Below, one piece after another: positions 32,091-57,283 of a stretch of DNA of 64,000 nucleotides. How positions within the stretch are numbered: the first letter of the stretch is position 1; the number at the start of each line of letters is the position of its first letter. Both the position numbers and the translations under genes were made by a program. The notes under the pieces are model-generated. The model was given only the letters and a program-made list of their open reading frames with translations. It was not told the DNA's origin and made no database searches. This stretch comes from Malacoraja senta (taxonomy: Eukaryota): positions 11,596,001 through 11,660,000 of the forward strand of contig CM075991.1 of the NCBI GenBank assembly GCA_038087875.1, written 5' to 3'.

Positions 32091-32099
32091 CTGAGTCCG

Positions 32100-32532: not shown

Positions 32533-32535
<3 letters not shown>

Positions 32536-34344: not shown

Positions 34345-34442
34345 CTGAGGGACAGACTGTGAGAAACAAGACGTGGTCACCTGGGAATGAATTAAACTTT
34401 TCTTCAAGTATTGACCCAGCTCCCATCTGTATGTTCCCTTCA

Positions 34443-34910: not shown

Positions 34911-35131
34911 CCCATCAGCAGCTCTGGCAGAGTATTCCAAATCACAAAGCCCTCGGACAATTCTGCTGCCAATTCCAAACGGCCTCTCGAGTCACTGGCC
35001 CACTGCAAACAGCTTCTCCCATCTGACTCCAGCAAAAGCCCTTCACAATCCAATACCCACGATGTCGGACATTTTGAAAACTATAAGGAAGATGATCAGT
35101 TTTCAATCTGCTTAACCCACAAATTTACTTA

Positions 35132-35532
35132 AGGGCCTGTCCCACTTTCACGACTTAATTCAAAACCTCAAGGACCTAAAAAAAAAATCATGATCGTGGT
35201 AATCTAAGAACTCCTACGACCTTCCACGACTATGTTCACGAACTCCTGTGAGTATGTCTACGAATTCCCACGACTATTTCAATGCCCTCCTTATGAGTAA
35301 AAAGTTGCAATTTCTTTCATCCCGACCATTTTTTAAACTCGTGGACATTTTTTATCAGGCTGGAAAAAACGTCCCGACTTACCTGATGCCCCGAGTACCT
35401 ATGGCTGGCATAACGGGCCGCTACAATATATCTACCAACTCCTACGACCTCCTACGGACATTCTGCGAGTTTGAATCAAGGGGAAAACTCGGGAGAATTC
35501 GTGAATTACCTCGTGAAAGTGGGACAGGCCCT
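35132..35532. mobile_element. MITE, PIF/Harbinger-like, with TTA target-site duplication
   Basis: TTA-AGGGCCTGTCCCACTTTCACGA...TCGTGAAAGTGGGACAGGCCCT-TTA (22-bp perfect TIR). Confidence 0.85.
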
Positions 35533-37229
35533 TTACTGGGGAAGCACGATGGGTTAAATGGCCAACATAAGGATGTTAGTGAGGCAATAAATATATGTGT
35601 TCATGATGTTTACATTCCACAGCACAACTAGTTTAGTTAAAATAAACATTGGGGGTTGTAAACTAAGATGAGGGCAATAAAACTGATCCGGAGTGACTTT
35701 TACTGCACCCGTTTGTTATACAAATGGAAGATAAGGTTAAAGATAACTGGGGTAAGACAAAGATGAAAGGCTACAGAGATATTGATCAATAATTAATTAT
35801 TTCAAAGTAGAATCCACATGTGACCATTGCCCCGTCAGAATATAAAAATGTTGTGGGTGCTGTGGATCTTTGAAACGCTTTGGGTTCTCTCAGAGTGTTT
35901 CCCAGTGCGTACTGTCAAGGCCTTGAATAAGCCAACTTTATCGCAAAACTCATCGCTGTTCTACGAGATGTTTTATTTTGTGTCTGTTCCTCTCTGTGTC
36001 TGTTGCTCTCAGGTGAAACATGAAATTCCCTCCTACAACCTCGATCCAATCTTAGTTTAATTTAGTTTAGAGATATAGCGCGGAAACAGGCCCTTTGGCA
36101 CAACAGGTCCGCGCCGACCAGCGATCCTGCACATTAACACCATCCTACACACATTAGGGACAATTTACATCTACACCCAGCCAATCAACCTACAAACCTG
36201 TACGTCATCTGAAGAGCAACCTCACTGCCTTGGTTAGATAACTGTGTCTAACCAAGCATTCAACTGGGAGAGAGGACGAGTGAGGGTGGCGTGCCAGAGA
36301 CATGGGGTGGCACGGTGGTGCAGTGGTAGAGTGGCTGCCTAACAGCGCCAGAAACCCGGGATCGATCCCGACTATGGGTGCTGACTGTACAGGGTTTGCA
36401 CGTTCTCCCCGTGACAGTGTGGGTTTCCTCCGGGTGCTCCGGTTTCCAGCTGGGGGCGTGGAAGGGCCTGCTTCCACCAGGGGCACCGGGGCAATGGCTG
36501 CCCTGCTGGCAGTCTGTTCGTTTTGTTATTTTTTAGTGTGTTCAATGTCTGTTTTAATGTTCTTACATTTGTTATATGTGGAGGGAGGGGGGGGGAGAGG
36601 ATCGGGGGAAACTTTTTTTCAAGTTCTTACCTTGCCGGAGATGTGATTAATTTTCGGATCACATTCTCCGGGCGCTCTGCAGCCTTCCATCGATGGAGCT
36701 GGAAGCCCCCTCGGACTGACTTTGAGCCCTATCGCAGGGTGCGGACTTAACATCGGAGCTGATCCCTTGCCTGGGATCGCTCCCACCACGGCCACCGTGG
36801 ACTTTACCATCAAACTCGCAGTCGGGAGAGGCTAGTCGGGAGCTCCAACGTCGCGGAAGGTTCGACCAGCCCCAACTCGAGGCTCGATCGTCCAGCGCGG
36901 GGGAGATGACATCCCCTCAGATGCAGGAGCTGATCGCCTCGACGCGGAGGGCCCGAAAGCCGCCGGCTGCGGGAGTCAAGATCTTCCCGTCAACAGAGGC
37001 TCGAGGCCCACGACCGAGGAAGAACTAAGGGAAGGACTTGAACTTTATTTCGTCTTCCATCACAGTGAGGAATGTGGAGGAGTCACTGTGGTGGATGTTC
37101 ATGTTAAAATGTGTTTTCGAGTGATCTGTTGCTTTTAATTGTATGACTGACCTGGCTAATGAAATTCCTCGTATGTTGCAAAACATACTTGTCAAATAAA
37201 GTGTGATTCTGATTTCTAAACTAACTTAC

Positions 37230-37366
37230 CGCGGCGACAGGCTCCGACTTCTGCTGCTCCTCTGCGTTCCCCTCCGCATCCTGATAAATGTCCTCGTGCT
37301 CCACTGTGTCCGAGTGGTGGAACTGCCAGCTGTAGCCTTCTTCACTCTGAACTTGCTCCGCTGGCG
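37230..37366 (-). CDS. DBNL: Drebrin-like protein exon 13 (acidic linker)
   Basis: APAEQVQSEEGYSWQFHHSDTVEHEDIYQDAEGNAEEQQKSEPVAA|gtaagt; phase 1-0 fits its neighbours. Confidence 0.8.
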
Positions 37367-38018
37367 CTGGTTGCCAGAACATGAGCAGAGGGAAAATCAG
37401 GTCAATAGGCAACGAGGGCAGGAATACCCAGCCACTCTCCCACCACCCCCACCACCCACTTGAAAACAGAATACTGGGGAGACTCAAGAGATCAGGCGTG
37501 TGAGCAAGGAGAAACTGAGAACATTCCAGGTCAAAGGTAGACAAAAAATGCTGGAGGAACTCAGCAGGCGAGGCTGCATCCAAGTAGAGAAGGAATAGGC
37601 GACCAGTCTGACTCTGAACACTCTCTCCCCTCTCCCATCAGACAAGAGGTGCAGAAGTGTGAAAACGCACACCTCCAGATTCAGGGGCAGTTTCTTTCCA
37701 GCTGTTATCAGGCAACTGAACCATCCACGAAAGAGCAGTCTGACCCACCAACCACCTCATTGGAGACCCATGGATTATCTTGAATCAGACTTTACCTTGC
37801 ACTAAACATGATACCCTTTCTCCTGTGTCTGTAATCACGTATAATCTTCCCACCGACTGGATAGCACGCAACAAAAAAGATTTTCCGTGTACCTCGGTGC
37901 TCGTGACAATAATAAACCAAATAGAGGTAGATAACGTTCCCTCCCGAACACAGTGCATATCACGTACAGACATACGTGCACAGATCCAGGAGCACAGACA
38001 CCTCAGCTGCTGACTTAC

Positions 38019-38102
38019 CGTTCCAGTCAGTCTGCGGCTCCTCCTTGGGCTCTGCTTCTACCCTCTCGGTTTCACTCTGCGCCTCTGCTGAGGGCTGCAT
38101 GT
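38019..38102 (-). CDS. DBNL: Drebrin-like protein exon 12 (acidic linker, symmetric)
   Basis: tttag|AC...G|gtaagt; DMQPSAEAQSETERVEAEPKEEPQTDWN; 84 bp, phase 1-1. Confidence 0.72.
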
Positions 38103-38879
38103 CTAAATACAAGGTTGGCAAACACAATGATTTCTAATCGTGTGCTGATCTGATGGGATTTGCCAAAGAAGATCAACGATCAGAGATTTACAAAGGGAAG
38201 AGGTGTGTGCGCGTGCGAGCGAGTTCATGCCCGTGTGCGTGTGCATGCGCGCGCGTGTTTGGAAAGGGTTGAAAAGCGACCACCTCTGCTCCTAGCACCC
38301 ACCGAACCAAACTCTATAAATACAATCATTCCCAGGCATGCTGTGTTTAAACTGCATTACCATGGTTACATCGCATAGGTTACATTCTCAACCTCAATTA
38401 TCAAAGTGGAGACAAAGGCCGAAAAATATCTCAAAAATGTGAATTTATAGTGGACCTTTGACAACCCACTGAGCCCTGCCTCTTTGTCGCTTGGAAAGCC
38501 CTCAGCTGGGGGCCGTGCACATCTCTGGTCCCTGTATACCCTGGTTAGAAGCCATGCAGCACTCCACATCACTGTGGCTTCTATACACAGGGGCTCCCTG
38601 GGTTACAAACCACCTGTTTTTTAACGGAAAATTGAACAACAAGCTGGAGGAACTCTGCGGATCAGGCACCATTTCTGAAGAAAAGGAATAGGTGACGTTT
38701 CGGGTCGAGACCCTACTTCAGACTTATGGAAATCCGACTATACCCAAACTCACACTTTATTACCACATTTGCTAAGCAAGTTGTGATAATAATACTACAT
38801 GGTCTCTATTAACCACTGGATACAGTATATTAGTTTAGTTAGAGGTTGGGTTTGGTGAGTATTGGATGAAAATAAAATG

Positions 38880-39185
38880 GGGTGGCACAGTGACGCAGCG
38901 GTAGTTACTGCCTTACAGCGCCAGAGACCCGGGTTAGATCCTGACTGCGGATGCTGTCTGTACGGAGTTTGTACATTCTCCCGTGACCTGTGTGGGTTTT
39001 CTCTGAGATCTTCGGTTTCCTCCCTCACGCCAAAGACGTCTAATTGGCTTGATATAAATGTATAAATATATCAATGTAAAAATGTCCCCAGTGTGTGTAG
39101 GATAGTGTTAATGTGCGGGGATCGCTGGCCGGTGCAGACCTGGTGGGCTGAAGGGCCTGTTTCCGCGCTGTATCTCCAAACTAAA
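38880..39185 (+). mobile_element. V-SINE (HE1-like), near full length
   Basis: tRNA-like head, shared body and AAACT tail. Confidence 0.8.
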
Positions 39186-40214
39186 CAGTATGTAGTTTAC
39201 AGTATGTAGAATGATTGATGTAGAAAATGGACGTTTTCTGACTTGGAGAAATTGGCTACGGACGGTTCCCAGGAATGATACCTGGAAGTAACCCGGTGAC
39301 GATCGGCACTGTGGTTAGACCACATTTGCAGCACCATGCACAGTTCTAGTCTCTCTACTACAGAATGAATCGTAAGATGCTGAAAGGGATTGTGGAATTC
39401 AGAGGTTGTATAACGGCTGGGGTGCTCTGGTTACCACCTTGGTTGGCTCATTGTAATACAATTCCATTTGTTTGGAAGCCCAGAATTATTGGTAATATAA
39501 ATCCAATCAGGGATTCAGGAGAAAAGTCGACCCAGAGAGGTGTGAACTCTCTGCATTCACTCCATGAATTAATAAGCATAAAGCAGATTACATTGAAGGC
39601 AAAGCTTGCTAAGCACGGTAGATGTGGCGATAGGGTGAGATGAAGGGGGACGAGGAGGCGTGTGGACAGTTTCAACTCTGTAGGAAGGAACGGCAGTTGC
39701 TGGTTTAAACCGAAAACAGAGACTAAATGCTGGGGTAACTCAGCGGGACAGGCAGCATCTCTGCAGAGAAGGAATGGGCGGCTTTTCGGGTCGAGACCCT
39801 TCTTCAGACAGATGTCCGAATGACTCTTCTCCAGTCCGAAGAAGGGTCTCGACCCGAAACGTCACCCATTCCTTCTCTCCAGTGATGCTGCCTGTCCCGC
39901 TGAGTTACACCAGCCATTTGTGTGTATCGACAGTTTAAACTCTGGTGGATACGTCTAAGGAAATGTCTGATGCAGAGCGAGTGGTCTGGTTTGTGTGATT
40001 TAGCCCGAGGCTGAGACACAAGTGAGGTCCCACAAGGTCCTGCATTTACAGCATTGCAAGTGACAGCAATACACAACCGTCGGTCTCCGATTACACACAT
40101 CACATGAGAGAGCTCGCGGGTTTAGTAACTAACGTCATGCATCTCATCCCGAACCCTTTGTTGATTGTTTCGCTACCCCAGGCACAGTGAAAACGGAGAA
40201 GAGGCGATGCCAAC

Positions 40215-40307
40215 CTGGGGACTGTGGCTGGGCTGATGAGCGGACAGGCGAGGGAGGGGATTCTAGCTGCTGGCTCCGGGACTGCAGGAAAGGGCTCTTC
40301 AACTTGC
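40215..40307 (-). CDS. DBNL: Drebrin-like protein exon 11 (proline-rich)
   Basis: GKLKSPFLQSRSQQLESPPSPVRSSAQPQSP resembles human GKLRSPFLQ; the donor CAG|gttggc is weak, so the 3' end is less certain. Confidence 0.82.
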
Positions 40308-40524
40308 CTGGCAGAAAAAAGCAGATAAGACACAAGCACGGACACAACAGTGAGCAGCGCTGTCACGACACCGCACAAGGCAACACGGCAGGAGACTCCA
40401 AGCCAGCGGCCGCACGCTGCAGGCCTGCACTGTGAAGGAAGAAGTTAAAAGCAGCACCAATCACCTTCTAGTGTTCAAAATTACACACCAAATAAAAGTC
40501 CACAATATTTGATAAGTCTGATTT

Positions 40525-40815
40525 TTAAGAATAAGGAGTAAGCCATTTAGAACGGAGACGAGGAAACACTTTTTCTCACAGAGAGTAGTGAGTCTGTGGA
40601 ATTCTCTGCCTCAGAGGGCGGTGGAGGCAGGTTCTCTGGATGCTTTCAAGAGAGAGCTAGATAGGGCTCTTAAAAATAGCAGAGTCAGGGGATATGGGGA
40701 GAAGGAAGGAATGGGGTACTGATTGTGGATGATCAGCCATGATCACATTGAATGGCGGTGCTGGCTCGAAGGGCCAAATGGCCTACTCCTGCACCTATTG
40801 TCTATTGTCTATTGA
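40525..40815 (+). mobile_element. CR1-type LINE 3' end
   Basis: Shared CR1 3' UTR and (CTATTGT)n tail. Confidence 0.8.
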
Positions 40816-43104
40816 TGCAAGCTGACCAGATGCAGCAACACTGAGCTTATTACTTTATTAAAATACATAGGGCAGGCCCAATATTTACTGCTGATCTTCA
40901 ATGGCAGCTGGTTCTGGTGGTGATCCACCTTGAATCATGGTGGTCTTTGTTGGGAAGGGGCTCTCACACTGCAGTTATGCAAGCCCAGGGTTTAGACCGG
41001 GCGGACAGTGGAGGAATGGAGATATATTTCGAGGAGTATTGCTTATAGATGGTAGGAGTCGCATGCATCAGCTGTCCTTATCGCCACGCAACCAGGTAAT
41101 GGAGAGGCATAGAGTGACACAGCGTGGAAACAGGCCCTTCGGACCAACTTGCCCACACCAGCCAAAATATCCCAGCGCCACTAGTCCCACCTGCCAGCAT
41201 TTGGTCCATATCCTTCCAAACCTGTCCTATCCATGTACCTAACTGCTTCTTAAATGTTGGGAAAGTCTCAGCCTCAACTACCTCCTCCGGCAGCTCGTTC
41301 CATACACCCACCACCCTTTGTGTGGGAAATGTTACCCCTCAGATTCCTATTAAATCTTTTCCCAAGAGGGAGAGGGGATAAATGAACTTCAGGACAGTGG
41401 ATTGGAAGGGCAGTACCAGCTTGGGTGCCAGTGTTTCAGCCTGAAGGGCTACTTGTGCTTTCAACCCAGCAGAGAGCAGCAAGAAACGTCAGTGCAGGCG
41501 CAAGGAGAGTCTAGAACTAGAGGTCATCTCGTCAGAATTAAAGGACGTTCTTTTAGGAAGGAGGCGAGGAGAAATTTCTTTAATCATAGGGTGGTGAATC
41601 TGTGGAATTCTTTGCCACAGAAGGCTGTAGAGGCCAAGACAATGGATATTTCTACGGCAGAGATAGATTTTTGATTAGTACAGGTGTCAGGGGTTATGGG
41701 GAGAAGGCAGGAGAACGGGGTTCAGAGGGAGAGATAGATCAGCCATGATTGAATGGCGGAGTAGACTTGATGGGCCGAATGGCCTAATTCTACTCCTATT
41801 CCTTACGACGTTAAGGGACAAACGAGGAAAGATTGCGTTGATAACCAGTAAATCTGAAGTAAATGAGGCGCTTGGACATTGCACCAACTAACCAGATAAC
41901 AAGCCAAGTTGCAACCACATCCTGCCTAGTGTCTCAATTGCACGGTGAAATTAGCAGAGCTACAACTGAGTAGTTTAATCTTTTTCCTCCAGCGCAGATA
42001 AGACTCTGTATTTATGGAACGCGGTCATGAGAACAGTGCCATTTGCCGCAGCCCTCAGCCCTGAAGCAAGCAGCTCAGTGCAAATTGCGTTAATGTAACA
42101 GTGCATGACTTGCAAACCTCAGTGTTCTCTGTGCAACAGGACATCCTCGGCAGCTGTGGCGTCAGAGAGCATGAAGCGGGGCAGAAGCCTTTCTAGGTAC
42201 GCTGACGCCCGACTCCATAAGTTTCCAGATCAGTGGTCAAAATATCAAAGACGTATTAAGCTGCTTGTACACAGCGAGATGCACTAGGATGTGAGTGTCG
42301 TTCCAAACAAGAAGGGGTTTAGGTGGGGATAAACCCGTTACCCCTGGTGCAAAGGTGGTCAACGTGACTTTAAGGGAAAACATCCATAAAAATATCCACT
42401 GACATGGCCTCCACACCATTCTGTGGCAAAGATTTCCACAGATTCACCACCCTCTGACTAAAGAAATTTATTCTCATCTCCTTCCTAAAGGAACGTCCTT
42501 TAATTCTGAGGCTGTGACCTCTAGTCCTAGACTCTCCCATGAGTGGAAACATCCTCTCCACATCCACTCTATCCAAGCCTTTCACTATTCGGTACATTTC
42601 AATGAGGTCCCCCCTCATTGTTCTAAACTCCAGCGACTACAGACCCAGTCTCTCAAACACTCATCACATATTATTTAACCCATTCATTCCTGTTCCCTCT
42701 CCATTACCAGGCCTTGTGCTCACACTAATTCACATGGGATCTTGAGGTCTTGACCCGCTCACGCTCCTGGAACAGGAGGGCAGTGGATCTGCTCACTTGT
42801 AGCTAAACACTGCGACAGCAAAAGTTGCTGGACTGTTGCAACTGTGCAGCTCAGGACTGTTGCAACTGTTATCATTACCTTTGCAGCTTTAGTCAACTCA
42901 AACAGCAGGTTGGAACGTTATTCTGGGTCGTGAGGGTTCAGGACTGTACAATGTCACATTCAGGAACTGTAACCACTACACATAGGCTTATCCCTTCTGC
43001 CTATGAAACGTGTTGCATGCATTCAGGCGGTGGGATAGCAGGAGGGGGGGCGGTGGGATAGCGGGGGGGGGGGGGGGGGGGGAGGTCTGGTCCTTCTCCA
43101 TTAC

Positions 43105-43216
43105 CTGGCTGTGTGCTCGCATTGAACAAAGACGGGTCTGCCAACTTGCCACGTTCACGATCCTTGAACAGCTCCTTGGGGTTCATTGATCTCTGGGCGA
43201 TGATTGAAGCTGCCTC
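43105..43216 (-). CDS. DBNL: Drebrin-like protein exon 10
   Basis: EAASIIAQRSMNPKELFKDRERGKLADPSLFNASTQPG resembles human HPREIFKQKER...SPQPG; phase 0-1. Confidence 0.9.
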
Positions 43217-43264
43217 CTGTAGAGAGAGCAGTAGTAAGTGGAGAACGCAGACGTCAGCAAGCAG

Positions 43265-43755
43265 GTGTGTGTGCGTGCGTGCGCCTGTGTGTGTGTGTGT
43301 GCGCCTGTGTGTGTGTGTGCGCGCCTGTGTGTGTGTGTGCGCGCCTGTGTGTGTGCGCGCCTGTGTGTGTGTGTGTGCGCGCCTGTGTGTGTGTGTGTGT
43401 GTGCACGCCTGTGTGTGTGCGCGCCTGTGTGTGTGCGCGCCTGTGTGTGTGTGTGTGTGTGTGTGCGCCTGTGTGTGTGCGCGCCTGTGTGTGTGTGTGT
43501 GTGTGTGTGCGCCTGTGTGTGTGTGTGCGCGCGCCTGTGTGTGTGTGTGTGCGCCTGTGTGTGTGTGTGTGTGTGCGCGCCTGTGTGTGTGTGTGTGCGT
43601 GCGCGTGGTCATGTGTGTGTGTGTGTGTGTGTGCGCCCCTGTGTGTGTGTGTGTGTGTGTGCGCGCGCCTGTGTGTGTGTGTGTGCGTGCGCGTGCTCCT
43701 GTGTGTGTGTGTGTGTGTGCGTGCCTGTGTGTGTGTGTGTGTGCGTGCCATGTGT
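43265..43755. repeat. (GT)n-GCGCCT compound microsatellite
   Basis: Directly visible alternating purine-pyrimidine array. Confidence 0.97.
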
Positions 43756-44245
43756 ATGACTCAGCCTGCCTCCCCACCCTGGCAAGTACCTGCCCATTTA
43801 AACAAAAATACTACCCATGTTTAATCTATGTTCTCTTACGTTCCAGGTTGTAAATAATCTCCTATGGGGCTCTGACATACATTTACAGTCAGTCGGAACA
43901 ACTGAAGGTAGACACAAAATGCTGGAGTAACTCAGTGGGACAGGCAGCATCTCTGGATAGAAGGAATAGGTGACGTTTTGGGTCAAGAGTAAGGTGTGAA
44001 AACAAGACCAATAGAGATAGGGTTCAAGGAGAATGTTAGCTGGGAGAAGGTGACAACAAAGAATTTTAATCTAGGGGACAGTCAGACTGGTTGGAGAACT
44101 AGGAAGGGGGAGGGATGGAGAGAGAGGGAAAGCAATGGCAGTTGCTCCTTGCCATTCAATTCCCTGTGTGTTAAGTACCCCACATCCTCTTTGAATGAAA
44201 GACAGCACTGTAGCCCATGCAGATACATGCTAATGGTCAGCATAC

Positions 44246-44320
44246 CGACGCCTTTTCAATGGACTGGCTTCTCTTGAACCCCTTGCGCATCTCTGCTTGA
44301 TATTCCTGCTCTTGTTCATT
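44246..44320 (-). CDS. DBNL: Drebrin-like protein exon 9
   Basis: ttttgcag|NEQEQEYQAEMRKGFKRSQSIEKAS|gtatg; 75 bp, phase 0-0. Confidence 0.85.
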
Positions 44321-44949
44321 CTGCAAAACAACCCATTCACGCAGTTAGCGGCAGCACAGTACTCGGGACACCCATGAAGGAAACTACTGACAAGCTGCCA
44401 GAGGAGGTAGATGAGGCTGGGACTATCCCAACGTTTAAGAAACAGTTAGACAGGAACATGGACAGGACAGGTTTGGAGGGATATGGACCAAACGCAGGCA
44501 GGTGGGAGTAGGGTAGCTGGGACATGTTGGTCGGCATGGGCAAGTTGGGCCGAAGGGCCTGTTTCCACACTGGATCACTCTATGACTCTAAGCCCTGGGA
44601 GTGCAGGGGATTACTCTGTTCCTAGCCCATCTGGTACCTGTCCTACGAATTTTTAATAAGTGTCAAGAGAATTGTACTCTCTCAGCAGGGCTGCCCCTGC
44701 CCAAGGAGCGTTTCATGGGGCAGCTTAGAGAAATATTCCGTTTTTCTAAGCCACACTCTACCTCACCTTGGGATGATTTACTGAAGAGTGTTAAGGAAGC
44801 ATTAGAAATTTGAATGCAAAACAAAGTTTATATTTTGTACCCTAGCAATGTATTACATGGACTGGCCTTTTCAAGTCAGTCTGACGTTCAGCGCGCACGA
44901 GCTACAGAGAGGGACGTCAACGTTTACAGTTACACAGATGAGTTCTCAC

Positions 44950-45004
44950 CCAGCGCTGTTTCTCATTATCCCTGCTTACAGAGTCTTGTTTCTTCTGGAA
45001 CTGC
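44950..45004 (-). CDS. DBNL: Drebrin-like protein exon 8
   Basis: cgcag|G QFQKKQDSVSRDNEKQRW|gtgag; 55 bp, phase 2-0, which bridges exons 7 and 9. Confidence 0.85.
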
Positions 45005-47194
45005 CTGCGACAGATGGATAAAAACAGAGTGAATTCAAAGATGAATTGAAAATGCAGTCTGTTGAGGGCGTAATCTTTTTATGAATCATTACGGAGGTGT
45101 TCCATAACCCATATTAAACACACCAACACCCAATGCAAGCAAGTTGTACCCAGACCCATGAAGCTGCTCAGACATTGTTAACATTACATAGAAACATGGA
45201 AAATAGGTGCAGGAGGAGGCCATTCGTTGGTATTTTGTTGGTTCACATGCTTGATCAATGGTATTTTATCATTAATGTTTTATTATTATTAATGTTTAGT
45301 GTTTTCTGAGGCATTCGTAACTGTCACTGTATGTCATGTTGTTACTTGTGGGTGGAGCACCAAGGCAAATTCCCTGTATGTGAATACTTGGCCAATAAAC
45401 TTACTTACTTATTTGGCCCTTCGAGCCAGCACCGCCATTTATTGTGATCATGGCTGATCATCCACAATCAGTAACCCGTGCCTGCCTTCTCCCCATATCC
45501 CTTGATTCCACTAGACCCTAGAGCTCTATCTAACTCTCTTTTAAATTCATCCACTGAATAGGCCTCCACCGCCTTCTGGGGCAGAGAATTCCACAAATTC
45601 ACAACTCTCTGGGTGAAAAAAAGTTTTTTTCCATTGTCAGTTTTAAATGGCCTCCCCTTTATTCTTAGACTGTGGCCCCTGATTCTAGACTCCCCCAACG
45701 TTGGGAACATTTTTCCTGCATTACGGCAGGAAACCCACAGTAAGTACAATTATTGTAATATTTGCAACTCCTTAAAACACCAACAGCACAACACTGAGAC
45801 AATAAGCAGGAGTATCAACTTGAAGTAGCGGTCCAAAGTTTATGCTGCATGAAACTACAATCAGGTCATCTAATTTGAGGGAGTTCAAACCAATTCCACA
45901 TAATGTTGGAAGGAACTGCAGATGCTGGTTACACTGTAGACACAAAATGCTGGAGTAATTCAGCGGGACAGGCAGCATCTCTGGAGAGAAGGAAAGGGTG
46001 ACGTTTCAGGTTGAGACATCACCCATTCCTTCTATCCAGAGATGCTGCCTGCCCCGTTGAGTTACTCCATCATTTTGTATCAATCAACTCCACATGGTGT
46101 TTGATGGAGTTGAGGGAGAGGTTTACTCTTTCAAACCTGCCCTAGGGATTTTTAATAGGAAGTGTCCAGAGAGTTTAACTATCTCTTCAGTGCTGCCGCT
46201 CCCCTGCCCTGTGGCTGTTAGATGGGACAGTTTAGAGAGATATTCTGCTGTTTTTAGCCATCCTGTACCTTAGCTTGGGGCAATTTATAAGCACAGTGTG
46301 ATGGAAGCAATACAACATTTGCAACTCATCAGGGTAGATGTTTTAATGAGCACACTGTCGCACACTAGTTGGAAACGACACCATTTCTTCCAGTAAGCCT
46401 CGGAATATACTCTTCTGGGAACAGAATGGCAGGGATTTGCTAACTGAATTCCACTGAAGACCTGTGATCTATGCTTAGCTGAAAGAGACAAAAGTTGAGG
46501 AAGATTACCAGTGCTAGCTCGGGTATTTCAATGTCACTACTTTGGGTTTCCACATCCGAATCAGTCGCACATTAATGGCGTGGTTGCAATGCATCGTGAT
46601 ATAGAGTAAATGCTTCTTCCATATGTAAGACATGGGGCCATTGTAAATAAAAAAATAGATCCAGTAAGGGATTCAAGGCTTATTCACACAGAGGGTGGTG
46701 GGAACATGGAACAAGCTGCCAGAGGAGGTGATAGAGGCAGGTACAGTAATGACATTTAAAAATACACTTGGAAAGGTACATGGTTAGGAAAGATTTGGTG
46801 GAAGCATCATCAAGGACCCACACCATCCTGGCCACACACTCATCTCCCTGCAACCTTCAGGTAGAAGGTACAGGAGCCTGAAGACTGCAATGACCAGGTT
46901 CAGGAATAGCTACTTCCCCACAGCCATCAGGTTATTAAACCTGGCTCGGACAAAACTCTGATCATTAATAACCCATTATCTGTTATCTGCACTTTATCAG
47001 TTTATTTATTCATGTGTGCATATATTTATATTATGGTATATGGACACACTGATCTGATCTGTAGTAAATGCCTACTATGTTCTGTGTGCTGAAGCAAAGC
47101 AAGAATTTCATTGTCCTATCAGGGACACATGACAATAAACTCACTTGAACTTGAACATGGACCAAGTGCAGGTAAGTGGGATTAGCTAGATTAA

Positions 47195-47485
47195 GCACGG
47201 TGGCGCAGCAGTTGAGTTGCTGCCTTACAGACCCGGGTTCGATCCCAACTACGTGTACTTGTCTGTACGGAGTTTGTACGTTCTCCCCGTGACCACGTGG
47301 GTTTTCTCCGAGATCTTCGCTTTCCTCCCACACTCCAAAGACGTGCAGGTTTGCAGGTCAATTGGCTTGGTGTAAATGTAAATTGCCCCTAGTGTGCGTA
47401 GGATAGTGTTAGTGTGCGGGGATCGCTGGTCCTTGCGGACGTGGTGGGGCGAAGGGCCTGTTTCCGCGCTGTATCTCTTCACTAA
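47195..47485 (+). mobile_element. V-SINE (HE1-like)
   Basis: GCACGGTGGCGCAGC A box and GGTTCGATCC B box. Confidence 0.8.
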
Positions 47486-47572
47486 ATAACATGTCCTGCA
47501 GTCCCTGACCCGGTCCGTACCCAAACACAGCACCACTCGGAGAAAGAATGGACACAGGGAAACAACACTCAC

Positions 47573-47724
47573 TTCTGCTGGTCAATCTGACTTGACTTAT
47601 CTCTATATTTCTGCTCCCTCGTCTCAGATTCTCGACGCTCCCTCTCCTTCCGCTCCTGCTCCAAGCCTTCATGTTCTTGTGCCCTCCTCTTCTTGTCTTC
47701 TTCCCTTCGCTTCGCCTCATCTTT
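47573..47724 (-). CDS. DBNL: Drebrin-like protein exon 7 (charged coiled coil)
   Basis: KDEAKRREEDKKRRAQEHEGLEQERKERERRESETREQKYRDKSSQIDQQK; AG/GT ends, phase 0-2. Confidence 0.93.
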
Positions 47725-47924
47725 CTGATGGGAAAGGGACTCGCCGTCAGTGTGGGAATGCGACGTGGAAAATCGGAAACACGCCCCCCCCCAAGTTTCG
47801 ACGATACTCCTGCAGGACCCAACTCTGTGGGGCCAGGAAGCAGCAGTCCCTAGCTCACGGCATGTGGGGAGAGACTGCGGAGAACTGGGGATACAGCAAC
47901 ACACAAGGAATGTGGGGGGAGATT

Positions 47925-48390
47925 ACAGGAATGATACTAGCGATGAGTGGGTTACCACATAATGAGCACATGACGGCACTGGGCCTGTACTCGCTGGAGT
48001 TCAGAAGGATGAGGGGACACCTCGTTGAAACTTACCGAATAGTGAAAGACTTGGATAGAGTGGATGTGGAGAGGATGTTTCCACTAGTGGGAGAGTCTAG
48101 GACTAGAGGTCAAAGCCTCAGAATTAAAGGACGTTCCTTTAGGAAGGAGATGAGGAGGAGATTATTTAGTCAGAGGGCGGTGAATCTGTGGAATTCTTTC
48201 CCACAGAAGGTTGTGGAGGTCGTCAATGGATATATTTAAGGCAGAGATAGATAGATTCTTGATTAGTACGGGTATCAGGGGTTATGGGGAGAAGGCAGGA
48301 GAATGGGGTTACGAGGGAGAGATAGATCATCCCTGATTGAGTGGTGGAGTAGGCTTGATGGGCCAAATAACCTAATTCTGCTCCGATCAC
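47925..48390 (+). mobile_element. CR1-type LINE 3' fragment
   Basis: ALGLYSLEFRRMRGHLVETYRIVKDLDRVDVERMFPLVGESRTRG motif. Confidence 0.85.
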
Positions 48391-49381
48391 CTTTGTACAT
48401 GAAATTGTGCAGGACTGGTGATACAGCAGCACACAAGGAATGGGGGGGGGAGACAGTCGAGGACTGATGATACGGCACCCCGCAATGAGAATGTCCGAGC
48501 TAGTCCAGGGGCAGAGAGTTTGGATCTTCTCCCCACATAGCACACTCTATGTATGGGTGTCAGGGGTTACGGGGAGAGTGAATGAATACTTTATTGTCAC
48601 ATTTGACAAGTCACTGTAAAATTCTTTCCTTGCAAACCCAAGGCATACAAATAGCTGCCCATAAAGGGCACTGACAAAGCTCTGAGCTCAGCAGAAGGCA
48701 GGAGAATGGGGTTGGGAGGGAGAGAATGATCAGCCATGACTGGATGGCGGAGTAGACTTGATGAGCCGAATGGCCTAATTCTGCTCCTATTATTTACAAC
48801 CTTACACCGCTCCTGGGCAGACAGCACGGGTGGCTCAACATCGCTGTCTCAGATCATGAGCAGCATTGATCAACGTTTTTGTGCTTGTCAGCATTTCTAG
48901 CGAGGCTGTCATTTACTGCTCATTCCTCCGTGCTGCACTGATCATTTCTTCAGCGTTGCTGTGATTTCATGCTCACTGACTTGCAAATGGTAGGTCTGGG
49001 CTCAAACAGGCCAAGACCAGGTAGGTACTTTCCTTGAAACACATCCAGAGTCAACTCTGGGATCCTATAACCAAAGGAGTGTTTTGCAGTCAGCTTTATC
49101 TCCATGGGGTCTCACTGTGGACACCCGATTCTCAAAGTGGCGCGGTGGGACTTCAATTGGCAACCTCAGGGTTTAGTCATTTGGACAGGTGGATGGCAGA
49201 TGTAAGCTATAATCGCTGATCACAACTCAACACAACCGGCTGAATGTATCCTTCAAAGGTATCCACTGCCGTAACTGTCACTGTATGTCATGTTGTTACT
49301 TGTGGGCGGAGCACCAAGGCAAATTCCTTGTATGTGAATACTTGGCCAATAAACTTACTTACTTACTTACTAAAGCCTCAC

Positions 49382-49459
49382 CTCCGTTTGTGCCCAGAAA
49401 CCCTCCTTGTTCACGTTTCGGATTTCTGACATTGCATTTGTCTTCTTATAAACTGACCC
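49382..49459 (-). CDS. DBNL: Drebrin-like protein exon 6
   Basis: GSVYKKTNAMSEIRNVNKEGFWAQTE versus human [26 protein letters not shown]; 78 bp. Confidence 0.96.
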
Positions 49460-50657
49460 CTGAGTGGAGAGAGAAGGTAATTAGTGCTGCCTGAAGATTG
49501 TGGCATTCAAATGACAGCAAGATGTGTAGCACGTGTCCTGGGTTGGGAAGGGATAGAATTTGGCCGTGAAACTCGACCTGTCAGAGCACAGCCAGATGCA
49601 ACGATGCTCTGTGGTCACACTGCATGGGCGAGGTGCTTCACAGCAGACACCCAGAATGCACGCAGCTTTCCATTGCTACTGGTAACTTTGCCTGAGGAAG
49701 TGTGCTGCATATGGGACAGGTTTCCCCATTCTAAGGCCCACTCGTGCTATACAATTATATCCTACCTGCGAGGGACAATTTACAGAATCCAATTAGCCTA
49801 CATATCTGCACATCTTTGGAGTTTGGGAGGGAACCGGAGCACTCAGATAAAACCCACACGATCACAGGGAGAACGTACAAACTCCGCACAGACAGCACCT
49901 GTAGTCAAAATTGAACCCGGGTCCCTGGCTCTGTAAGGCAGCAATTGGCTGGGACAGTGTGCCGTCTTGGTCTCTGCTCAGAACCGACAAAATACTTAGG
50001 ATTGAAGATCCCCTGCCGTCCCATCACCACACTGACACAATCCCAAACCACCTGATCACCATTCACATATCCCACCATGTTATTTAGTTTAGAATTTAAG
50101 AGGCAGCCCAGGCTTACAGCCAACGCGGAGAAGAAGCGCTAACTCCATTGCTCCGGGCCGGTGTCCCATCAGTCCAGGGTCACCCCAGACATCTCCAACT
50201 GCCCCCGGACAGAGATGGGACATTCGGGAGGGGACGGGGACGGTCCAGTAGCAATTCAACAGCGCTTGCAGCGCCGGAGACCCGGGTTCGATCCTGACTA
50301 CGGATAAAACGCAGGTCTGCATCCATGCAGCAGCACAGCTGCTGAGAATGTTTATCACGAGTGACCTTTGACAAATCCCATGATTCTTTGCGTTTTTCGG
50401 AATACCAAACTCGCTTATTGTCATATGCACCAGGAACGGATCAGTGAAATTCTTACTTGCTGCAGGTCCATTAATACAATAACAAATATATAATAATCAA
50501 TAATTCAATATTATCAGTAATACTCGGTAGCCAGATGATAATAGTGCAAAGCAAAGCATGCAATGCAACCAGAACAAAGTCCACAGCAGATCGATGCTGA
50601 GGTTGGGCTGTAGGTAGGGTTGTGCAGAGTGCTTCAACAGGCTGATGGTTGACTCAC

Positions 50658-50804
50658 CACAGGTCCCTGCGGGTTGGTATCTTGGTAGCGGGAGCTCTCC
50701 TTGTGGAAGTTGTAGTTGGCACCGGAGGCCTTGGCAATCTTGGCAATGATCTCATCTGGCTCCACATCCTCATCAGCTCGGGCATTGATGGTAACGTGAG
50801 CTCC
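50658..50804 (-). CDS. DBNL: Drebrin-like protein exon 5 (end of ADF-H domain)
   Basis: [49 protein letters not shown]; 147 bp, AG/GT ends. Confidence 0.97.
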
Positions 50805-51690
50805 CTGGGCAGCGGGGGACATTCAACAGGAAAGCATGGTCAAAGATGGTGACTAATGTCATTCCCTTATCCGAAAAAGAGCACCAGGGATAAACCAGGA
50901 AACTAACAGGCTGGTCAGCCTTACAAGAAGGAGGAAATGAATGGAAAACATTATTGGGAACCAATGATGTAGGTTAATGGGCTTCTGTAAATTATCCCTA
51001 GCGGGTAGGACAGAATCGACCTTCACTTGGAAAGGCTGAGACTGATTAGAAGTCAACACAAAGCTAGACACAACACGCTGGAGTAACTCAGCAGGTTAGG
51101 CAGCATCTCTGGGGAGAAGGAACGGGTGACATTTCGGGTTGAGACAGATTTAGACAGGAACCTGGATAGGACAGGTTTCGAGATATATATGGACCAAATG
51201 AAGACAGGTGAGAATAGTAAATATGGGGCATGTTGGTCAGTGTGAGCAAGTTGGGCCGAAGGGCCTGTTTTTAAGCTGAATAATCTATGCCTTTCTGTTT
51301 CCACGACTCTATAATCTATGCCTTTATGACTGTGGTCTCTGGAAGGTAGGATTAAGTACAAATAGCCCAGAGGGTTGCTGGATGGGAACTAGTTTCCGAG
51401 ACAAGGTGGGGCTTGGACATGGAGGGAACCGGATACAAGGCTGAGGATTCCTAAGTCAAAGCCACACTGGATTAGGATCGAAGGCATCTCAGCGAGCAGC
51501 GGGGTGGTGGGGAAATGGGATTTAGTGCAAAATAGGATGTGGGCAGCAACATTGTTAACTGGCTCAAGAGTACAGTGGGTGTCAGGTGTGGGAAGCCGGC
51601 CAGAACAGCATAGTCTGGAGGGTAAGACGTGGCTGATGGTTTCGGCAACCGGTGGGTTGGGGAAGGAGAGTGTGGAGAACTTGACCTTAC

Positions 51691-51765
51691 CTTCAGAAAG
51701 TTGCCCATAGTGCTGACATGATTGGCACACAGCCCTTTCCTGGCATCCTTCACTCCTTCGCCAGT
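51691..51765 (-). CDS. DBNL: Drebrin-like protein exon 4 (ADF-H domain)
   Basis: [25 protein letters not shown]; 75 bp, AG/GT ends. Confidence 0.97.
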
Positions 51766-52295
51766 CTAAAGACAAAGGGTCAGGTAACTAGACATGCATC
51801 TGCCGATAAACAGTCATAGTCTCTGAACTCAAACAATTGTAGCTTTATCCAGCTTACATTCCTCAGCACAGAGTTTTAAAGAGCATAGCTCTGCAGAAAC
51901 AACAGGACCTGCAGGATTTTGCTGGAGATGAACATTTTACCATGGTGAAATACTCAAATATTGGGGAATATAGATTAGGAGCAAGAAGGGACACATCCTT
52001 TCTTGGCTGCAGGATTGCCAAAACTGGTCTCAGGTTCTCGAACAGCAGAAGAGGGAAATAACTGGATGTGGGAACCATGTATCGCCAGGCTGCCTCCACT
52101 AATCAAACTACTCAGCTATGTTGTCTCTCTCTCTCTCTGAGCTCACCCTGAAACAATGGTGCAGTGTTAAGCTTTCACAGAGTGGTAAACACACAGTGCC
52201 TGCAGAAGGGAGGAGCATGATCAAGTACGGCACTCCCAAGGGTGTGGAGAGTGGTCAATGAACAGTAACTCACCCACACACAGATCAACACTTAC

Positions 52296-52408
52296 CCAGT
52301 TAATCAACACACACTTGGGCAACCCCGAATTGGGGTCTTTCACTCGGCAGAAAGCGTACATCACTTTCCCACTGTTCATTTCTTCCACCATTTCTTCCAG
52401 ACCTCCAT
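52296..52408 (-). CDS. DBNL: Drebrin-like protein exon 3 (ADF-H domain)
   Basis: [38 protein letters not shown]; 113 bp, phase 1-0. Confidence 0.98.
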
Positions 52409-54128
52409 CTGAAAATGCCAATGTCATAGGTCATCAGAATAATCACAGCAGGAAAACAGGGGTTGTGCTAGTGTAAGCTTGACCAGCTTACAACCCAGCG
52501 GTATGAGTCTTGACTTCTCTAACGCCAAGTAACCCTTGCTTTCCCTCTCTCCCCCAACCTAGAACTCCGACTAGTTTCACTTTCCTCCTGATTAATTTGA
52601 CTGTTTGTGTGCCTCGTTGTCACCTTCCCCTCCGCTAACAATGAACCATTCTAAATATCACTGAACATCGTCTGCTTTGATCTGTCATTTTCACACCTTA
52701 CCCTTCCATATCCCCAGTCTCCCTGTCCCCTGACTCTTAGTCTGAAGAAGGGTCCCGACCCAAAACATCACCCATATGCTGCTCTCCAGAAATGCTGTCT
52801 GTCCCGCTGAGTTACTCCAGCATTTTGTGTCTATCTTCAGTTATGGTGAAAGGGTGTTATTCTGTCTGGAGTGTGCAACCAGTAGAATTCCAACGGGATC
52901 AGTGCTGGGACCTCTATTGCTTGTGATATATATAGACGACTTGGACGTAAATGTAAATGTAGATGGGTTGATTAGTGAGCTTGCAGACGAGACTAAAGTT
53001 TGTGGAGATGCGGACAGTGTGGAAGGCTACAAAAGTATACAACAGGATATAGATCAAAGATAGACTCAAAATGCTGGAGTAACTCAGCGGGACCGGCAGC
53101 ACATCTGGAGAGAAGGAATGGGTGACGTTTCGGGTCGGGATCCTCCTTCAGGATATAGATCAGCTACGGATATGGCAGATGAGAGATGAATCTGAGCATG
53201 TGTGAGGTGTTGCACTTTGGGAGGCGAATGCAAGGGGAAAGGACACAGTTAATGGTAAAACCCTGAAAAGCATTGATGTAGAGAGATATCTTGGGTTCCA
53301 AGTTCACAGTTTCCTGAAAGTGGCAACACAAACTGATAGAGTGGTAAAGGTGACTTATGGTATGCGTAACTTCATCCTTTGGAGGAGTAGGAAAGAACTG
53401 CAGGTGCTGGTTTAAATCGAAGGTAGACACAAATGCTGGAGTAACTCAGCAGGACAGGCAGCATCTATGGAGAGAAGGAATGGGTGACGTTTCGGGTCAG
53501 GACGTTTCGGTCCAAGAAGGGTCTCAACCCAAAAAGTCACCCATTCCTCTTCTCCAGAGATGCTGCCTGTTACTCCAGCATGTTGTGTCTATCTTCATCC
53601 TATGGGACACTGACTATGATAGTCATGAAGTCACGTTGCAGCTTTATAGGGCTTTTAGGTCGCATTAGAGTATTGTGATCAGTTCGGGTTGGTCCATTAC
53701 AGGAAGGATGTGGAAGATTTGGAGAGGGTGCAAAAGAGGTTTACAAGAATGCTGCCGGGATTAGAGGGCATTCGCTATAAGGAGAATGGAACACTAAGTA
53801 CTGAAGTAACTCAGCAGGTCAGGCAGCATCTCTAGAAGACATCCTGGGGTAAGTACAGGTGATGTTTCGGGTTGGGACCCTTCTTCAGATAGCTATGAAG
53901 AGAGAGGGAGAATGTACAAACTCCGTACAGAAAGCACCTGTCATCTCTGGCGCTGTAAGGCAGCAACTCTACCGCTGCACTGCTATACATTTACTTCTCC
54001 ATATGAGAACAATTCACATCGAGAAGGGAAGGTACGGCAACTCAATCAATTCTGCACCACATCAATGCAATCAAGATCACTTACTACGGATAAAATGCCA
54101 CTTAACAGTGTGTTTGAGTGATGCTCAC

Positions 54129-54184
54129 CTCCAGTTCCCGCCACCCGCAAGTCATTGCTGTTGCCCTCATATGTAAACAGTGCC
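54129..54184 (-). CDS. DBNL: Drebrin-like protein exon 2 (ADF-H domain)
   Basis: gttgcag|G ALFTYEGNSNDLRVAGTG G|gtgagc; 56 bp, phase 2-1. Confidence 0.97.
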
Positions 54185-55045
54185 CTGCAACAACAAAAAA
54201 ACAAGGTGTTTTAGACTATCTCAGGGTACTGTACAAAAAGCACTGGAATCAACAGGAAATAACCAGAAACTGCAGTTCTTTCTCCATACAGCCTATCTAA
54301 ATTTCTTTTAAATGCTCGTAGGGGTACTAACCACACAACCTAGTATAGGTATTAACTTCTTAAAGTTAATGCTTAAGGAACTGCTTAAAGTTCAACAAGT
54401 GTTTGTAAGCTATGAGATGGAGGTCAGATTGCAAACCGGCTTCACAAGGTCAGTCAAAGGCACTGGACTACCAATATGCACTTCAAAATACAGAAGGCCC
54501 GCAGTGCACATGGAAAACTACTTCCTTTTATGAAGCTTTGTGACCTTCCAAGGCCACGTAAACATTAGTTCCTCCTTTAAGTTTCAAGTCATTAAAGTGA
54601 ACTGCATCACAAAGCTGCTTTTCCTCGACCCGAAACGTCGCTGATTCCTTCCTTCGCTCCGTAGATGCTGCCTCAGCCGCTGAGTTTTCTCCAGCATTTT
54701 TGTCTACCTTCGATCTTTCCAGCATCTGCAGTTCTTTCCAATAGATTAAACATTCTTCCATTAAATAAAGAGGCCAGCGTTGTAGACACTTGAACGGATC
54801 TCACCAATGCCCGATGAGGCAGAGGAACAGCAGGGCAGTGGGACTGACTGCATTACTCTTGCCGAGTGCCAGCACAAACTATACGGGCCAAATGGCCTCC
54901 ATGCCACAATTTTCCAATTCTAAGCAATGGAGGGAAATATTGCTGCGTGAAACTGGATTGCACCAATCCACAGAATCAAGGGTAGTGGGGGAAGTGTATG
55001 GAAAGGAAGAGGATTACAGTTCAAGCCAAGTTCTATTATTGTGCA

Positions 55046-56066
55046 GGTACACAAAAATGCTGGGGAAACTCAGCGGGTGCAGCAGCATCTATGGAGCGAA
55101 GGAAATAGGCAACGTTTCGGGCCGAAACCCTTCTTCAGACTGATTGGGGGTGGGGGAGAAGAAAAAGAAAAAAGGCGGAGGAGGAGCCCGAGGCTGGGGG
55201 ATGGGAGGAGACAACCAGAGGGATGATGAAGAGGAGGGGACAGCAAAGGGTTAGCAGAGTTGGGAGAATTCGATGTTCATGCCCCCAGGATGTAGACTGC
55301 CCAAGCGGAATATGAGGTGCTGTTCCTCCAATTTCCGGTGTTGCTCGCTGTGGCCATGGAGGAGACCCAGGACAGAGAGGTCAGATACGGAATGGGAAGG
55401 GGAGTTGAAGTGCTGAGCCACCGGGAGGTCAGGTAGGTTATTGCGGACCGACCGGAGGTGTTCGGCGAAACGATCGCCAAGCCTCCGCTTGGTCTCACCA
55501 ATGTAGATCAGCTGACATCTAGAGCAGCGGATGCAATAGATGAGGTTGGAGTAGATGCAGGTGAACCTCTGTCGCACCTGGAACGACTGCTTGGGTCCTT
55601 GAATGGAATCGAGGGGGGAGGTGAAGGGACAAGTGTTGCATCTCTTGCGGTTGCAAGGGAAAAGTAACCGGGGAGGGGGTGGTACGGGAGGGAAGGGAAG
55701 AAATTGACAAGGGAGTTACGGAGGGAGCGGTCTTTGCGGAAGGCAGACATGGGGGGAGATGGGAAGATGTGGCGAGTGGTGGGGTCACGTTGGAGGTGGC
55801 GAAACTGACGGAGGATCACTTGTTGTATGTGACGGCTGGTGGGATGAAAGGTGAGGACTAGGGGGACTCTGCCCTTGTTGTGAGTGGGGGAATGGGGAGA
55901 GAGAGCAGTGTTGCGGGGTATGGCAGAGACCCTGGTGCGAGCCTCATCTATGGTGGAGGAGGGGAACCCCCGTTCCCTGAAGAATGAGGACATTTCGGAT
56001 GCCCTGGTGTGGAACGCCTCATCCTGGGAGCAGATGCGGCGTAGACGGAGGAATTGAGAGTGGGGA
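55046..56066 (-). mobile_element. 5'-truncated Penelope-like element (RT C-terminal region, GIY-YIG endonuclease, 3' region with hammerhead core)
   Basis: SQFLRLRRICS...GFP..., NLIYCIRCSRCQLIYIGETKRRLGDRFAEH...EEQHLIFRLGSLHPGGMN; flanked by a 14-bp direct repeat TCTATTATTGTGCA. Confidence 0.92.
55108..55142 (-). ncRNA. Minimal type I hammerhead ribozyme motif
   Basis: cagt-CTGAAGA-a-GGGT-TTCG-GCCC-GAAA-C-GTT-gcc: intact core, stem II with a UUCG loop, palindromic ACGU in place of stem III. Confidence 0.7.
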
Positions 56067-57283
56067 TCTATTATTGTGCAACCTTGTAACACAAAACACC
56101 AACAGGCTTCCGTGTAGATAACACACAGAACAAGTAATTCAACATTTTTAGCAGCGAGAATCTACTGCTTGTTCGGCAGCCCCTGAGGCGTGTGAATAAA
56201 CACTCCATCTCTGTGGGTTCTAAGGTGTCTGGTGAGGCCAATGCGGAACCACCGGGCCCGATTACAGGCGAGGGTTAGTGGACTTCAGAGACATAGCGTG
56301 GAAACAGGCCCTTCAGCCCGAGTTCACGCCAACATACGTGGTTGTTCAAGGGGAGGGACGTCGGTTTGCGTGCCGATCTAGTCAAAGGCAATGGCTGAAG
56401 GCCCTGGAGGAGCCTGGGGCTCACCAGGATCGGGAATTGCTCCAGTAGACTGAGCACAGGCAGACTGGACTTTGCACTGTGGAAATGATGCCAAAAACAT
56501 GGCCGCTCCCGCATGTGTAAACATGTAAAAGAAAATTTCACACTGCAGTTACATATGTGACATACAAAGCATCACTGAACAGCTTCTTCCCTTCTTATCA
56601 GGCTTCTGAATAGCTCTTTCACATGGGAGGGGAGTGTCAGATTCACAGTGACACCATTACGGATATTGGACTTTGTCTACGGAACTGATGCGCTACAATG
56701 CTGCAAACTATATCCTGCACCATGTATCTTTGCTCTATCTATTGCACTTGAGTTTAGCTTGATATATTTGTGTATAGTATTCTCTATTCTGTTTGGATAG
56801 CATGTAAGACAAAGGTTTTTCCTGGGTACATGAGATAACAATAAACCTAAAGAGTTATTTTCATGGGTTTGATTAGTCCTTTTCACCTTTAATGCCTACG
56901 TGTGAGACACCATCAAAAATATTTAAACAATGCTTCACAAGTTCAACTTCGAAACCTGGATATGTTTTAACTTGCATGCTAAGCATGAATCATCAGACCT
57001 ATGTTTGTTGAAAGTATAAATCAAAAACCCATAACACTTACCCAGCATTTTGTATCTATCTCCAGTGTAAACCAGCATTTGCAGTTCCTTCCGACATCTT
57101 ATCTATCAGTATTGGTTGATTATTGTCACAAGCACCGATACAGTGAAATAACTTTGTTTTGCGTTTTATCCGCTGGCAACATCTGTACAAAGTTTCTCAA
57201 TAAACTTATTTACGGGTTGAACGTGGAACTTGCTCCACTGGGGGTGGTTAAGACCAGCAAACACTCAAGAAGCAACCGGATAA

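Follow-up and report, generated by a model that had tools for sequence, protein, structure and literature searches.

The stretch of skate DNA analysed here (64,000 nucleotides of Malacoraja senta, hereafter the window) carries the gene DBNL, a truncated copy of a Penelope element, and a short repeat of 100-130 bp that shares the end of that element and is scattered over both strands (Table 1). DBNL was traced by homolog alignment. Its exon 1 was not found when the window was searched in six frames; positions 54184-64000 are therefore read as intron 1, and the Penelope copy as intronic and in sense orientation. Two coding segments (44246-44320 and 40216-40311) are each absent from one skate homolog, which suggests, from the alignments, that they are alternative exons; this observation on missing segments is indexed at 34153-34353 and 31951-32094 (minus strand). 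A search for another gene in positions 1-31,900, in which the longest 139 of 339 stop-free stretches were scanned (less six that had been scanned before or were repetitive), returned a single sub-threshold Pfam match. The remainder includes a frameshifted LINE reverse-transcriptase fragment (Pfam RVT_1; 28784-30180, minus strand), which ends beside the short copy at 28675-28770 and has the AATAAA-like signals past DBNL on its upstream side. Tandem minisatellites with units of about 10, 15 and 16 bp (1-970, 60856-61490, and 62775-63080) and four N gaps totalling 400 bases are also present.

Table 1. Features of the DBNL locus, the Penelope copy and the hammerhead-headed repeats, in order of position.
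Feature	Position	Strand	Basis or remark
Solo young (B) copy with tail	3584..3713	-	core 3684-3710 intact
Composite insertion	5313..5559	.	tailed full copy (core 5413-5440, minus), 35-nt partial tandem, inverted tail-less copy (plus)
Head-to-head pair, oldest C type, both arms tailed	9645..9858	.	profile search
Head-to-head pair, one arm tailed, both arms without core	22111..22270	.	profile search
Head-to-head pair, one arm tailed	23917..24099	.	profile search
Head-to-head pair, one arm tailed	26427..26532	.	profile search
Solo young copy with tail (~26761-26793)	26761..26890	-	core 26860-26887 intact; 12-bp duplication
Solo young copy without tail	28675..28770	-	core 28741-28768 intact
Head-to-head pair, partial tail on one arm	31140..31299	.	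profile search
DBNL, 14 coding segments (residues 29-521 of skate-like homolog)	31951..54183	-	homolog alignment
Head-to-head pair, near-full A copies, both cores mutated, one arm tailed	39678..39937	.	profile search
Head-to-head pair, one arm tailed	45905..46084	.	profile search
Older copy, core mutated at position 9	53043..53151	-	14-bp duplication
Head-to-head pair, one arm tailed	53388..53597	.	profile search
Older (A) copy, DBNL intron, sense	53790..53889	-	core bases 53861-53888 intact, palindrome broken
14-bp target-site duplication, 3' copy	55032..55045	.	
pLTR end of Penelope copy, short form without tail	55045..55142	-	95-99% identity to young solo copies
Stem I arms, 2 bp only	55109..55140	-	55140-55139 pairing with 55109-55110
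Intact minimal type I hammerhead core	55111..55138	-	pattern search; covariation in relatives
Pyrimidine-rich 3' UTR, ending CAG right before core	55143..55253	-	~110 nt
Cys-rich linker and GIY-YIG endonuclease	55254..55655	-	Pfam GIY-YIG E 1.2e-4; 77% to Leucoraja protein
C-terminal RT region (thumb)	55656..56066	-	tblastn frames -1 and -3
14-bp target-site duplication, 5' copy	56067..56080	.	

The Penelope copy (about 55045-56065) is 5'-truncated, lacks the RT core and has a one-base frameshift near 55,700; no full-length element lies within the 64-kb window. It displays the EN-plus trait of a C-terminal GIY-YIG domain after the RT, and the copies in the window show the traits of Penelope pLTRs: a hammerhead, an optional tail, inverted copies, and short target duplications. 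The best relatives of the GIY-YIG ORF are skate proteins (77% in Leucoraja, 73% in Rhinoraja), followed by proteins of rays, sharks and marine invertebrates. The linker before GIY-YIG matches the CX2-5CxxC motif that PMC8557442 gives for Neptune and Nematis. We call the element Neptune-like, a placement by linker and protein relatives rather than by an RT tree. A much older second Penelope fragment, consisting of linker and GIY-YIG, is found at 59493-59787 on the plus strand; no hammerhead was seen between it and the following gap. Among the annotated proteins of skates, rays and sharks, several (P0001, P0002, P0007, P0008, and P0013) are chimeras ending in the nuclease domain of the element, such as a receptor-transporting protein 3-like entry in Rhinoraja and Heptranchias; these may be either annotation artefacts or exonised copies. 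A zebra shark protein (P0006) continues through a pyrimidine-rich tail, and its next residues are compatible with an in-frame core, an indirect observation to which we give no weight as proof.

On the sense strand of the element the hammerhead core lies 116 nt past the GIY-YIG stop, which confirms its placement 3' of this ORF by an initial annotation of the window. It consists of CUGAAGA, a bulged A, a stem II of 4 bp (three G-C and one U-G) closed by a UUCG loop, GAAA, CG, and UU, with the predicted cut after 55111. Stem I of the skate copies is 2 bp only (G-C, then U-G or U-A); the two outer stem I columns are paired in about half of the alignment rows. The five intact cores listed in the initial annotation were all recovered at their places on the minus strand, each with the core bases, a stem II of 3-4 bp and the CG palindrome. 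In a sixth copy (53861-53888) no catalytic core base is changed and the helix III palindrome alone is gone, so that the conserved core (CUGANGA, GAAA, UH) is complete in five copies and its bases are intact in one more. With a 27-nt degenerate pattern and at most 3 mismatches we obtained 13 matches in the 64-kb window against none in 100 shuffles; nine of the 11 sites previously reported as mutated are among the 13, and the other two (near 2047 and 21595) emerged in a profile search. The Rfam models produced no hammerhead: there were no gathering matches across the 64-kb window, and none of the five weak matches in 54950-55250 at E up to 10 is a hammerhead. Together the core elements, found in five copies as had been claimed, support the assignment to a minimal type I hammerhead, with helix III shrunk to a palindrome.

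Relatives of the nuclease were collected in a metagenome scan, which yielded 67 loci, 64 of them with at least 130 nt of downstream DNA. A search for the core by sequence only, at most 700 nt 3' of GIY-YIG and with no pairing required, found a match in 30 of these 64 distant loci (the denominator includes the 34 loci without one), and none on the opposite strand. Of the 17 distinct motifs, taken unfiltered, 15 form both inner stem I pairs (mean 6.7 and maximum 12 after shuffling), 16 form stem II, and 14 have the palindrome. The inner stem I pairs vary (A-U, U-A, U-G and C-G at one; C-G, G-C, A-U and U-A at the other). In an alignment of 21 rows (8 from the window, 13 from outside), stem II with G10.1-C11.1 and the preceding bulged base has 96% of cells paired, and the covariation score is 0.62 against 0.21 for shuffled and at most 0.12 for slid alignments; 13 of the 21 rows had passed a pairing filter (22 of 60 loci), so that the pair counts lean towards structure, and the rows are related and thus not independent events. 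The CG palindrome of the five intact copies appears once as TA among the relatives. One relative (L040:1935-1967) combines a 7-bp stem II with TA in place of CG, a compensatory change in helix III. The covariation proposed for stems I and II is thus seen across relatives, and the sense-only motif in 30 of 64 loci and the compensatory stem changes show that the ribozyme is selected in active elements. Inside the window core conservation, which the initial annotation had named as a point of refutation, is slightly better than that of the rest but not significantly so (p 0.08-0.35): in the A copies 17 of 183 core sites are changed against 277 of 2053 elsewhere (p 0.11), and between the A and B consensus 0 of 11 against 12 of 81 (p 0.35). 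This is expected of copies that decay after insertion. Viral contigs gave six candidate protein relatives, none of them confirmed, and no motif matches; prokaryote genomes likewise gave no motif matches.

The profile search, built from 17 natural copies, found 50 copies or fragments of the repeat in the window (24 plus, 26 minus), covering 4,426 bp or 7%; the same search of the reversed window found none. The count is about three times the 16 sites given earlier and bears out the description of the repeat as high-copy. Six of the 20 largest direct-repeat families in the window are this Penelope-end repeat. The core stands at its head when the repeat is read on the ribozyme strand, and not at its end as had been stated. 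Young copies are 95-99% identical to the last 100 bases of the element and older ones about 76-85%, in agreement with the proposed derivation from Penelope. Three age classes of short copies were distinguished: A (older), B (young), and C (oldest). At the other end the copies fall in two groups, with 3' ends about 65 and about 100 nt beyond the predicted cut site, the gap between them being a tail of about 35 bp. In the tailed copies, 26761-26890 among them, the tail pairs with the best-kept internal block in a helix of 9-12 bp that encloses the short 3' end. By its predicted fold this helix is a candidate protein-binding or RT-start structure; z-scores from whole-copy folding gave no significant value.

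Neighbouring copies are strongly biased in orientation. Among the 13 neighbour pairs within 60 bp, ten are head-to-head, two tandem and one tail-to-tail (p 1e-4 for the head-to-head excess, against 0.25). Exactly one arm is tailed in eight of the nine head-to-head pairs that have both 3' ends (p 0.02); the tenth (3713/3750), with one 3' end missing, may represent two unrelated insertions. Contigs of related species contain strand-switch joints between 55128-55141 and 55097-55101, and a five-base self-complementary match is present in the joint region. Target duplications range from 8 to 16 bp. Of 38 insertion units, 15 have one of at least 8 bp (random sites: 12.5%) and 4 have one of at least 12 bp (random sites: 3.8%); in the other 23 no duplication reaches 8 bp. 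The composite insertion at 5313-5559 is flanked by 8 bp, and the copy at 28675-28770 by 16 bp with 16 extra bases at its 5' junction.

The 5' edge of the repeat is sharp. Of 31 matches, 14 start in the 8 nt just upstream of the core, and no match starts beyond that distance; three begin within 4 nt of the cut site, and none on it. In the profile search 18 of the 50 copies extend to model position 5 or lower. Upstream sequence is shared by the ORF-bearing copy alone, and its 3' UTR tract is common to no short copy in the window. Such a boundary counts against random 5' truncation, which does not predict it. As the 5' ends lie at the edge of the core and not at the cut site, the template was uncut, and something ended the cDNA there. 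The same edge is seen in RNA reads of a related species (polyA run X24; 10,707 reads aligned, 6% of the run; runs X19-X23, of small share, do not enter these figures), in which depth drops 58-fold, partly due to the fast-diverging pyrimidine tract, and 446 and 414 loose ends run into mixed flanks at 55140 and 55141. At the 3' end the reads divide: 1,925 pass into the tail at 55045 and 423 into mixed flanks at 55046. Over the repeat the two strands have equal depth (2471 sense, 2696 antisense). Over the coding part, the direction that would be antisense in most stranded libraries has 2.3 times the depth of the other. Of all reads, 90% continue into unrelated sequence. A pile-up of starts or ends was looked for in the 10,707 polyA reads, the initial annotation having proposed RNA ends after the cut triplet, and none was found at that site or anywhere else, in fragmented libraries that show cut ends poorly. 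The missing pile-up, equal strands and run-on reads look like those of passengers in host RNA, within what a library of this type can show.

Energy models point the same way. In the two copies folded, the minimum-energy fold is better than the hammerhead by 6.1 and 7.3 kcal/mol, and the pairing probability of stem I is about 0 in a model that leaves aside tertiary contacts and dimers; the hammerhead fold is disfavoured because the core purines pair with the pyrimidine run just downstream or with the tail. Helix III, being a dimer-forming palindrome, needs a second copy, the resulting duplex is worth only about -3.5 kcal/mol, and the intact cores on the same strand are 1.7-26 kb apart. The minimal hammerhead reported in PMC4209133 did not cut alone and cut weakly as a dimer; that of the anole element, as reported in PMC11167929, cut only with protein, left no RNA ends at the site, and its cutting was dispensable for insertion. 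Self-cleavage of lone genomic copies is accordingly doubtful in these models, and intact ones would be unlikely to cut at a meaningful rate. The 35-nt partial tandem at 5446-5479 allows a type III-like cis hammerhead with a 5-bp helix III to be drawn. As an active site, this cis double hammerhead (5413-5463, minus strand) was rejected, its fold being 8-20 kcal/mol worse than the best one; the inverted neighbour also masks it in a long hairpin.

We consider it probable that the repeat is the pLTR end of a Neptune-like skate Penelope, inserted alone by the RT and GIY-YIG nuclease of the element, and that the lone copies are passengers. The short piece would have been inserted on its own thousands of times. 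The nuclease would nick the target DNA, which would leave the 8-16 bp duplications observed, and RT would start at an internal position of the RNA, either about 65 or about 100 nt 3' of the cut site; these two internal start sites, of a kind known in vitro for an anole element, are suggested by the two classes of 3' ends. RT would then copy through the uncut hammerhead and usually end on reaching the 5' edge of the hammerhead or short of it. If both nicked strands serve as primers, or if priming is by fold-back, two cDNAs may be joined head to head, one tailed and one without tail; the pattern is observed and the cause conjectural. The hammerhead, judging from published tests of its relatives, would cut only as a dimer through its ACGU palindrome, probably with element protein. 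The lone genomic copies would be passengers, most of them decayed.

Other readings of the motif and of its repeat carry less weight. That the motif is a chance hairpin, no ribozyme-shaped element existing at all, could appeal to the silence of Rfam and to the weak core signal within the window (p 0.11 and p 0.35), but distant animals share an unchanged core with compensatory changes in its stems, at a fixed position 3' of GIY-YIG and with no antisense matches; this makes a chance hairpin scarcely conceivable, and the unfiltered core search in distant loci refutes it. The initial annotation had favoured a SINE/retrozyme-like self-cleaving family. An independent non-autonomous family of this kind would make a short RNA of its own, cleave it as a dimer, circularise it and be mobilised in trans. 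The very high copy number and defined length, a short form whose depth in reads and contigs is 5-13 times that of the ORF, the three age classes, and the vertebrate pLTR-derived retrozymes reported in bioRxiv 10.64898/2026.07.22.740005 (one chondrichthyan included) would all suit such a family. The window nevertheless holds no tandem run of complete units, and the repeat has no tRNA head; there is no sense excess and there are no discrete ends in polyA RNA (a selection that would miss circles), the 5' ends do not cluster at the cut site, and the young short copies are indistinct from the end of the ORF-bearing copy. A SINE was rejected on zero ARAGORN genes and zero Rfam matches in the window, the head of the repeat being the hammerhead, and a retrozyme on the lack of two complete tandem units in the window, where the 35-nt partial tandem at 5446-5479 is the only one. 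The anatomy is instead that of a truncated Penelope, and we regard an independent family as improbable.

What ends the cDNA at the core admits a further reading, which refines and does not replace insertion of the pLTR end by the element's own enzymes: RT, starting at an internal site of the 5' pLTR, might run off at an RNA start or splice junction at the 5' edge of the hammerhead, much like a strong-stop product. The sharp 5' pile-up in window copies and reads fits, as does the pyrimidine tract with CAG adjoining the core, and the Penelope intron of D. virilis is reported to have its 3' end where helix I begins (PMC4209133), at a distance of 121 nt from the start site (PMC2377424). Against this, no splice joint is among the RNA joints listed, AG just before the core occurs in only one of 17 distant motifs, 534 RNA reads continue at 55144 into the purine-rich plus-strand tract and represent copies that keep the 3' UTR, most short copies keep an AG that a spliced template would not need, and an RT that stalls where the pyrimidine tract begins would leave an edge of this kind too. 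We therefore rate the run-off reading as less likely than not. A splice acceptor before the core was dropped as a general feature, on the one relative in 17 and the lack of a joint among those listed. The invertebrate loci include about three solo hammerhead-headed copies (L012, L021, and L067), too few for testing the 5' edge. Within DBNL ten copies are minus (sense) and six plus (antisense), and the claim that minus-strand copies are transcribed in its pre-mRNA stands for one intact core (55111-55138, sense, in intron 1); the other four lie outside, beyond both the DBNL stop (by 3.2-28 kb) and the AATAAA signals at 30869 and 30658. That this one copy cuts or regulates DBNL pre-mRNA, for instance by pairing in trans with another copy, might be argued from its intact, sense and intronic core and from family RNA abundant enough to supply partners. 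The insertion is young and frameshifted, however, flanks in another species have one flat depth on both sides (which suggests an empty site there), the DBNL introns hold no second intact palindromic core, the helix III duplex is as weak as stated above, and sense copies are neither depleted nor enriched; we rate such regulation as very unlikely. The pair at 31140-31299 lies between the DBNL stop, from which it is 0.7-0.8 kb distant, and the first AATAAA, so it may belong to the DBNL 3' UTR and form an mRNA hairpin.

The published work offers close parallels. Minimal hammerheads are described in metazoan Penelope pLTRs, including fish Neptune elements (Cervera and De la Pena 2014, PMC4209133). 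The skate motif shares with them the type I core, the bulge before stem II, G10.1-C11.1, the palindromic 15.2-16.2, the pLTR position, and the occurrence mostly as single motifs with some opposite-strand neighbours. Its 2-bp stem I differs from the 4-5 bp of the main published families, D. virilis also having 2 bp, and five intact cores in one selected 64-kb window, a density that does not stand for the genome, compare with about 9,000 per genome in Xenopus and about 4,000 in coelacanth; cartilaginous fish are not named among the hosts in the available text of that paper. Inverted 5' copies, an optional tail of 30-40 bp on one end, duplications of 8-10 bp, and solo pLTRs are known from Penelope anatomy (PMC3846280, PMC8557442). 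Neptune elements (Craig 2021, PMC8557442; Arkhipova 2013, PMC3846280) are matched here in a C-terminal GIY-YIG preceded by a CxxxxCxxC linker, strong 5' truncation, head-to-head copies, a tail on one end, target duplications (8-16 bp in the skate), and solo pLTRs. Unlike in those accounts, solo ends here far outnumber coding pieces and have a sharp edge at the hammerhead. In the anole Poseidon element PAc, RT starts 85-92 nt past the cut site, two sites define the tail, and both strands are nicked and extended (Frangieh 2024, PMC11167929). The skate copies are alike in their two 3' ends with tail and in the absence of RNA ends at the cut site; the element belongs to a different clade, its copies end about 65 and about 100 nt past the cut site, and no start codon is evident at stem II. 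Retrozymes consist of tandem units, each with its own hammerhead, and give rise to circular RNAs (Cervera and De la Pena 2020, PMC7229834; Li 2026, bioRxiv 10.64898/2026.07.22.740005). The skate repeat resembles these in being short, non-coding, pLTR-related and dispersed as monomers with a type I hammerhead, and differs in that the window has no tandem array and its neighbours are inverted. No description of the skate family was found in the literature searched, which lay mostly outside subscription journals, Repbase, Dfam and the 2014 supplements; the families from one chondrichthyan that are listed with bioRxiv 10.64898/2026.07.22.740005 may include a relative.

The known association of minimal hammerheads with Penelope terminal repeats is hereby extended to a skate family, and a repeat covering 7% of the window receives its right label. 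An intact sense core in the intron of a conserved gene fits a motif that is silent without a partner and the element protein. It is possible, though we would not favour it, that the short form is a 100-130 bp run-off mini-Penelope at more than ten times the density implied by published vertebrate counts; the ends and joints of such copies would then map RT start, RT stop and two-strand priming in vivo. The copies are a natural record of Penelope insertion that agrees with the in vitro results on the anole element. Its components, namely the pair of 3' end classes, tails confined to one arm, joints of head-to-head type and the abrupt 5' edge, could be counted genome-wide.
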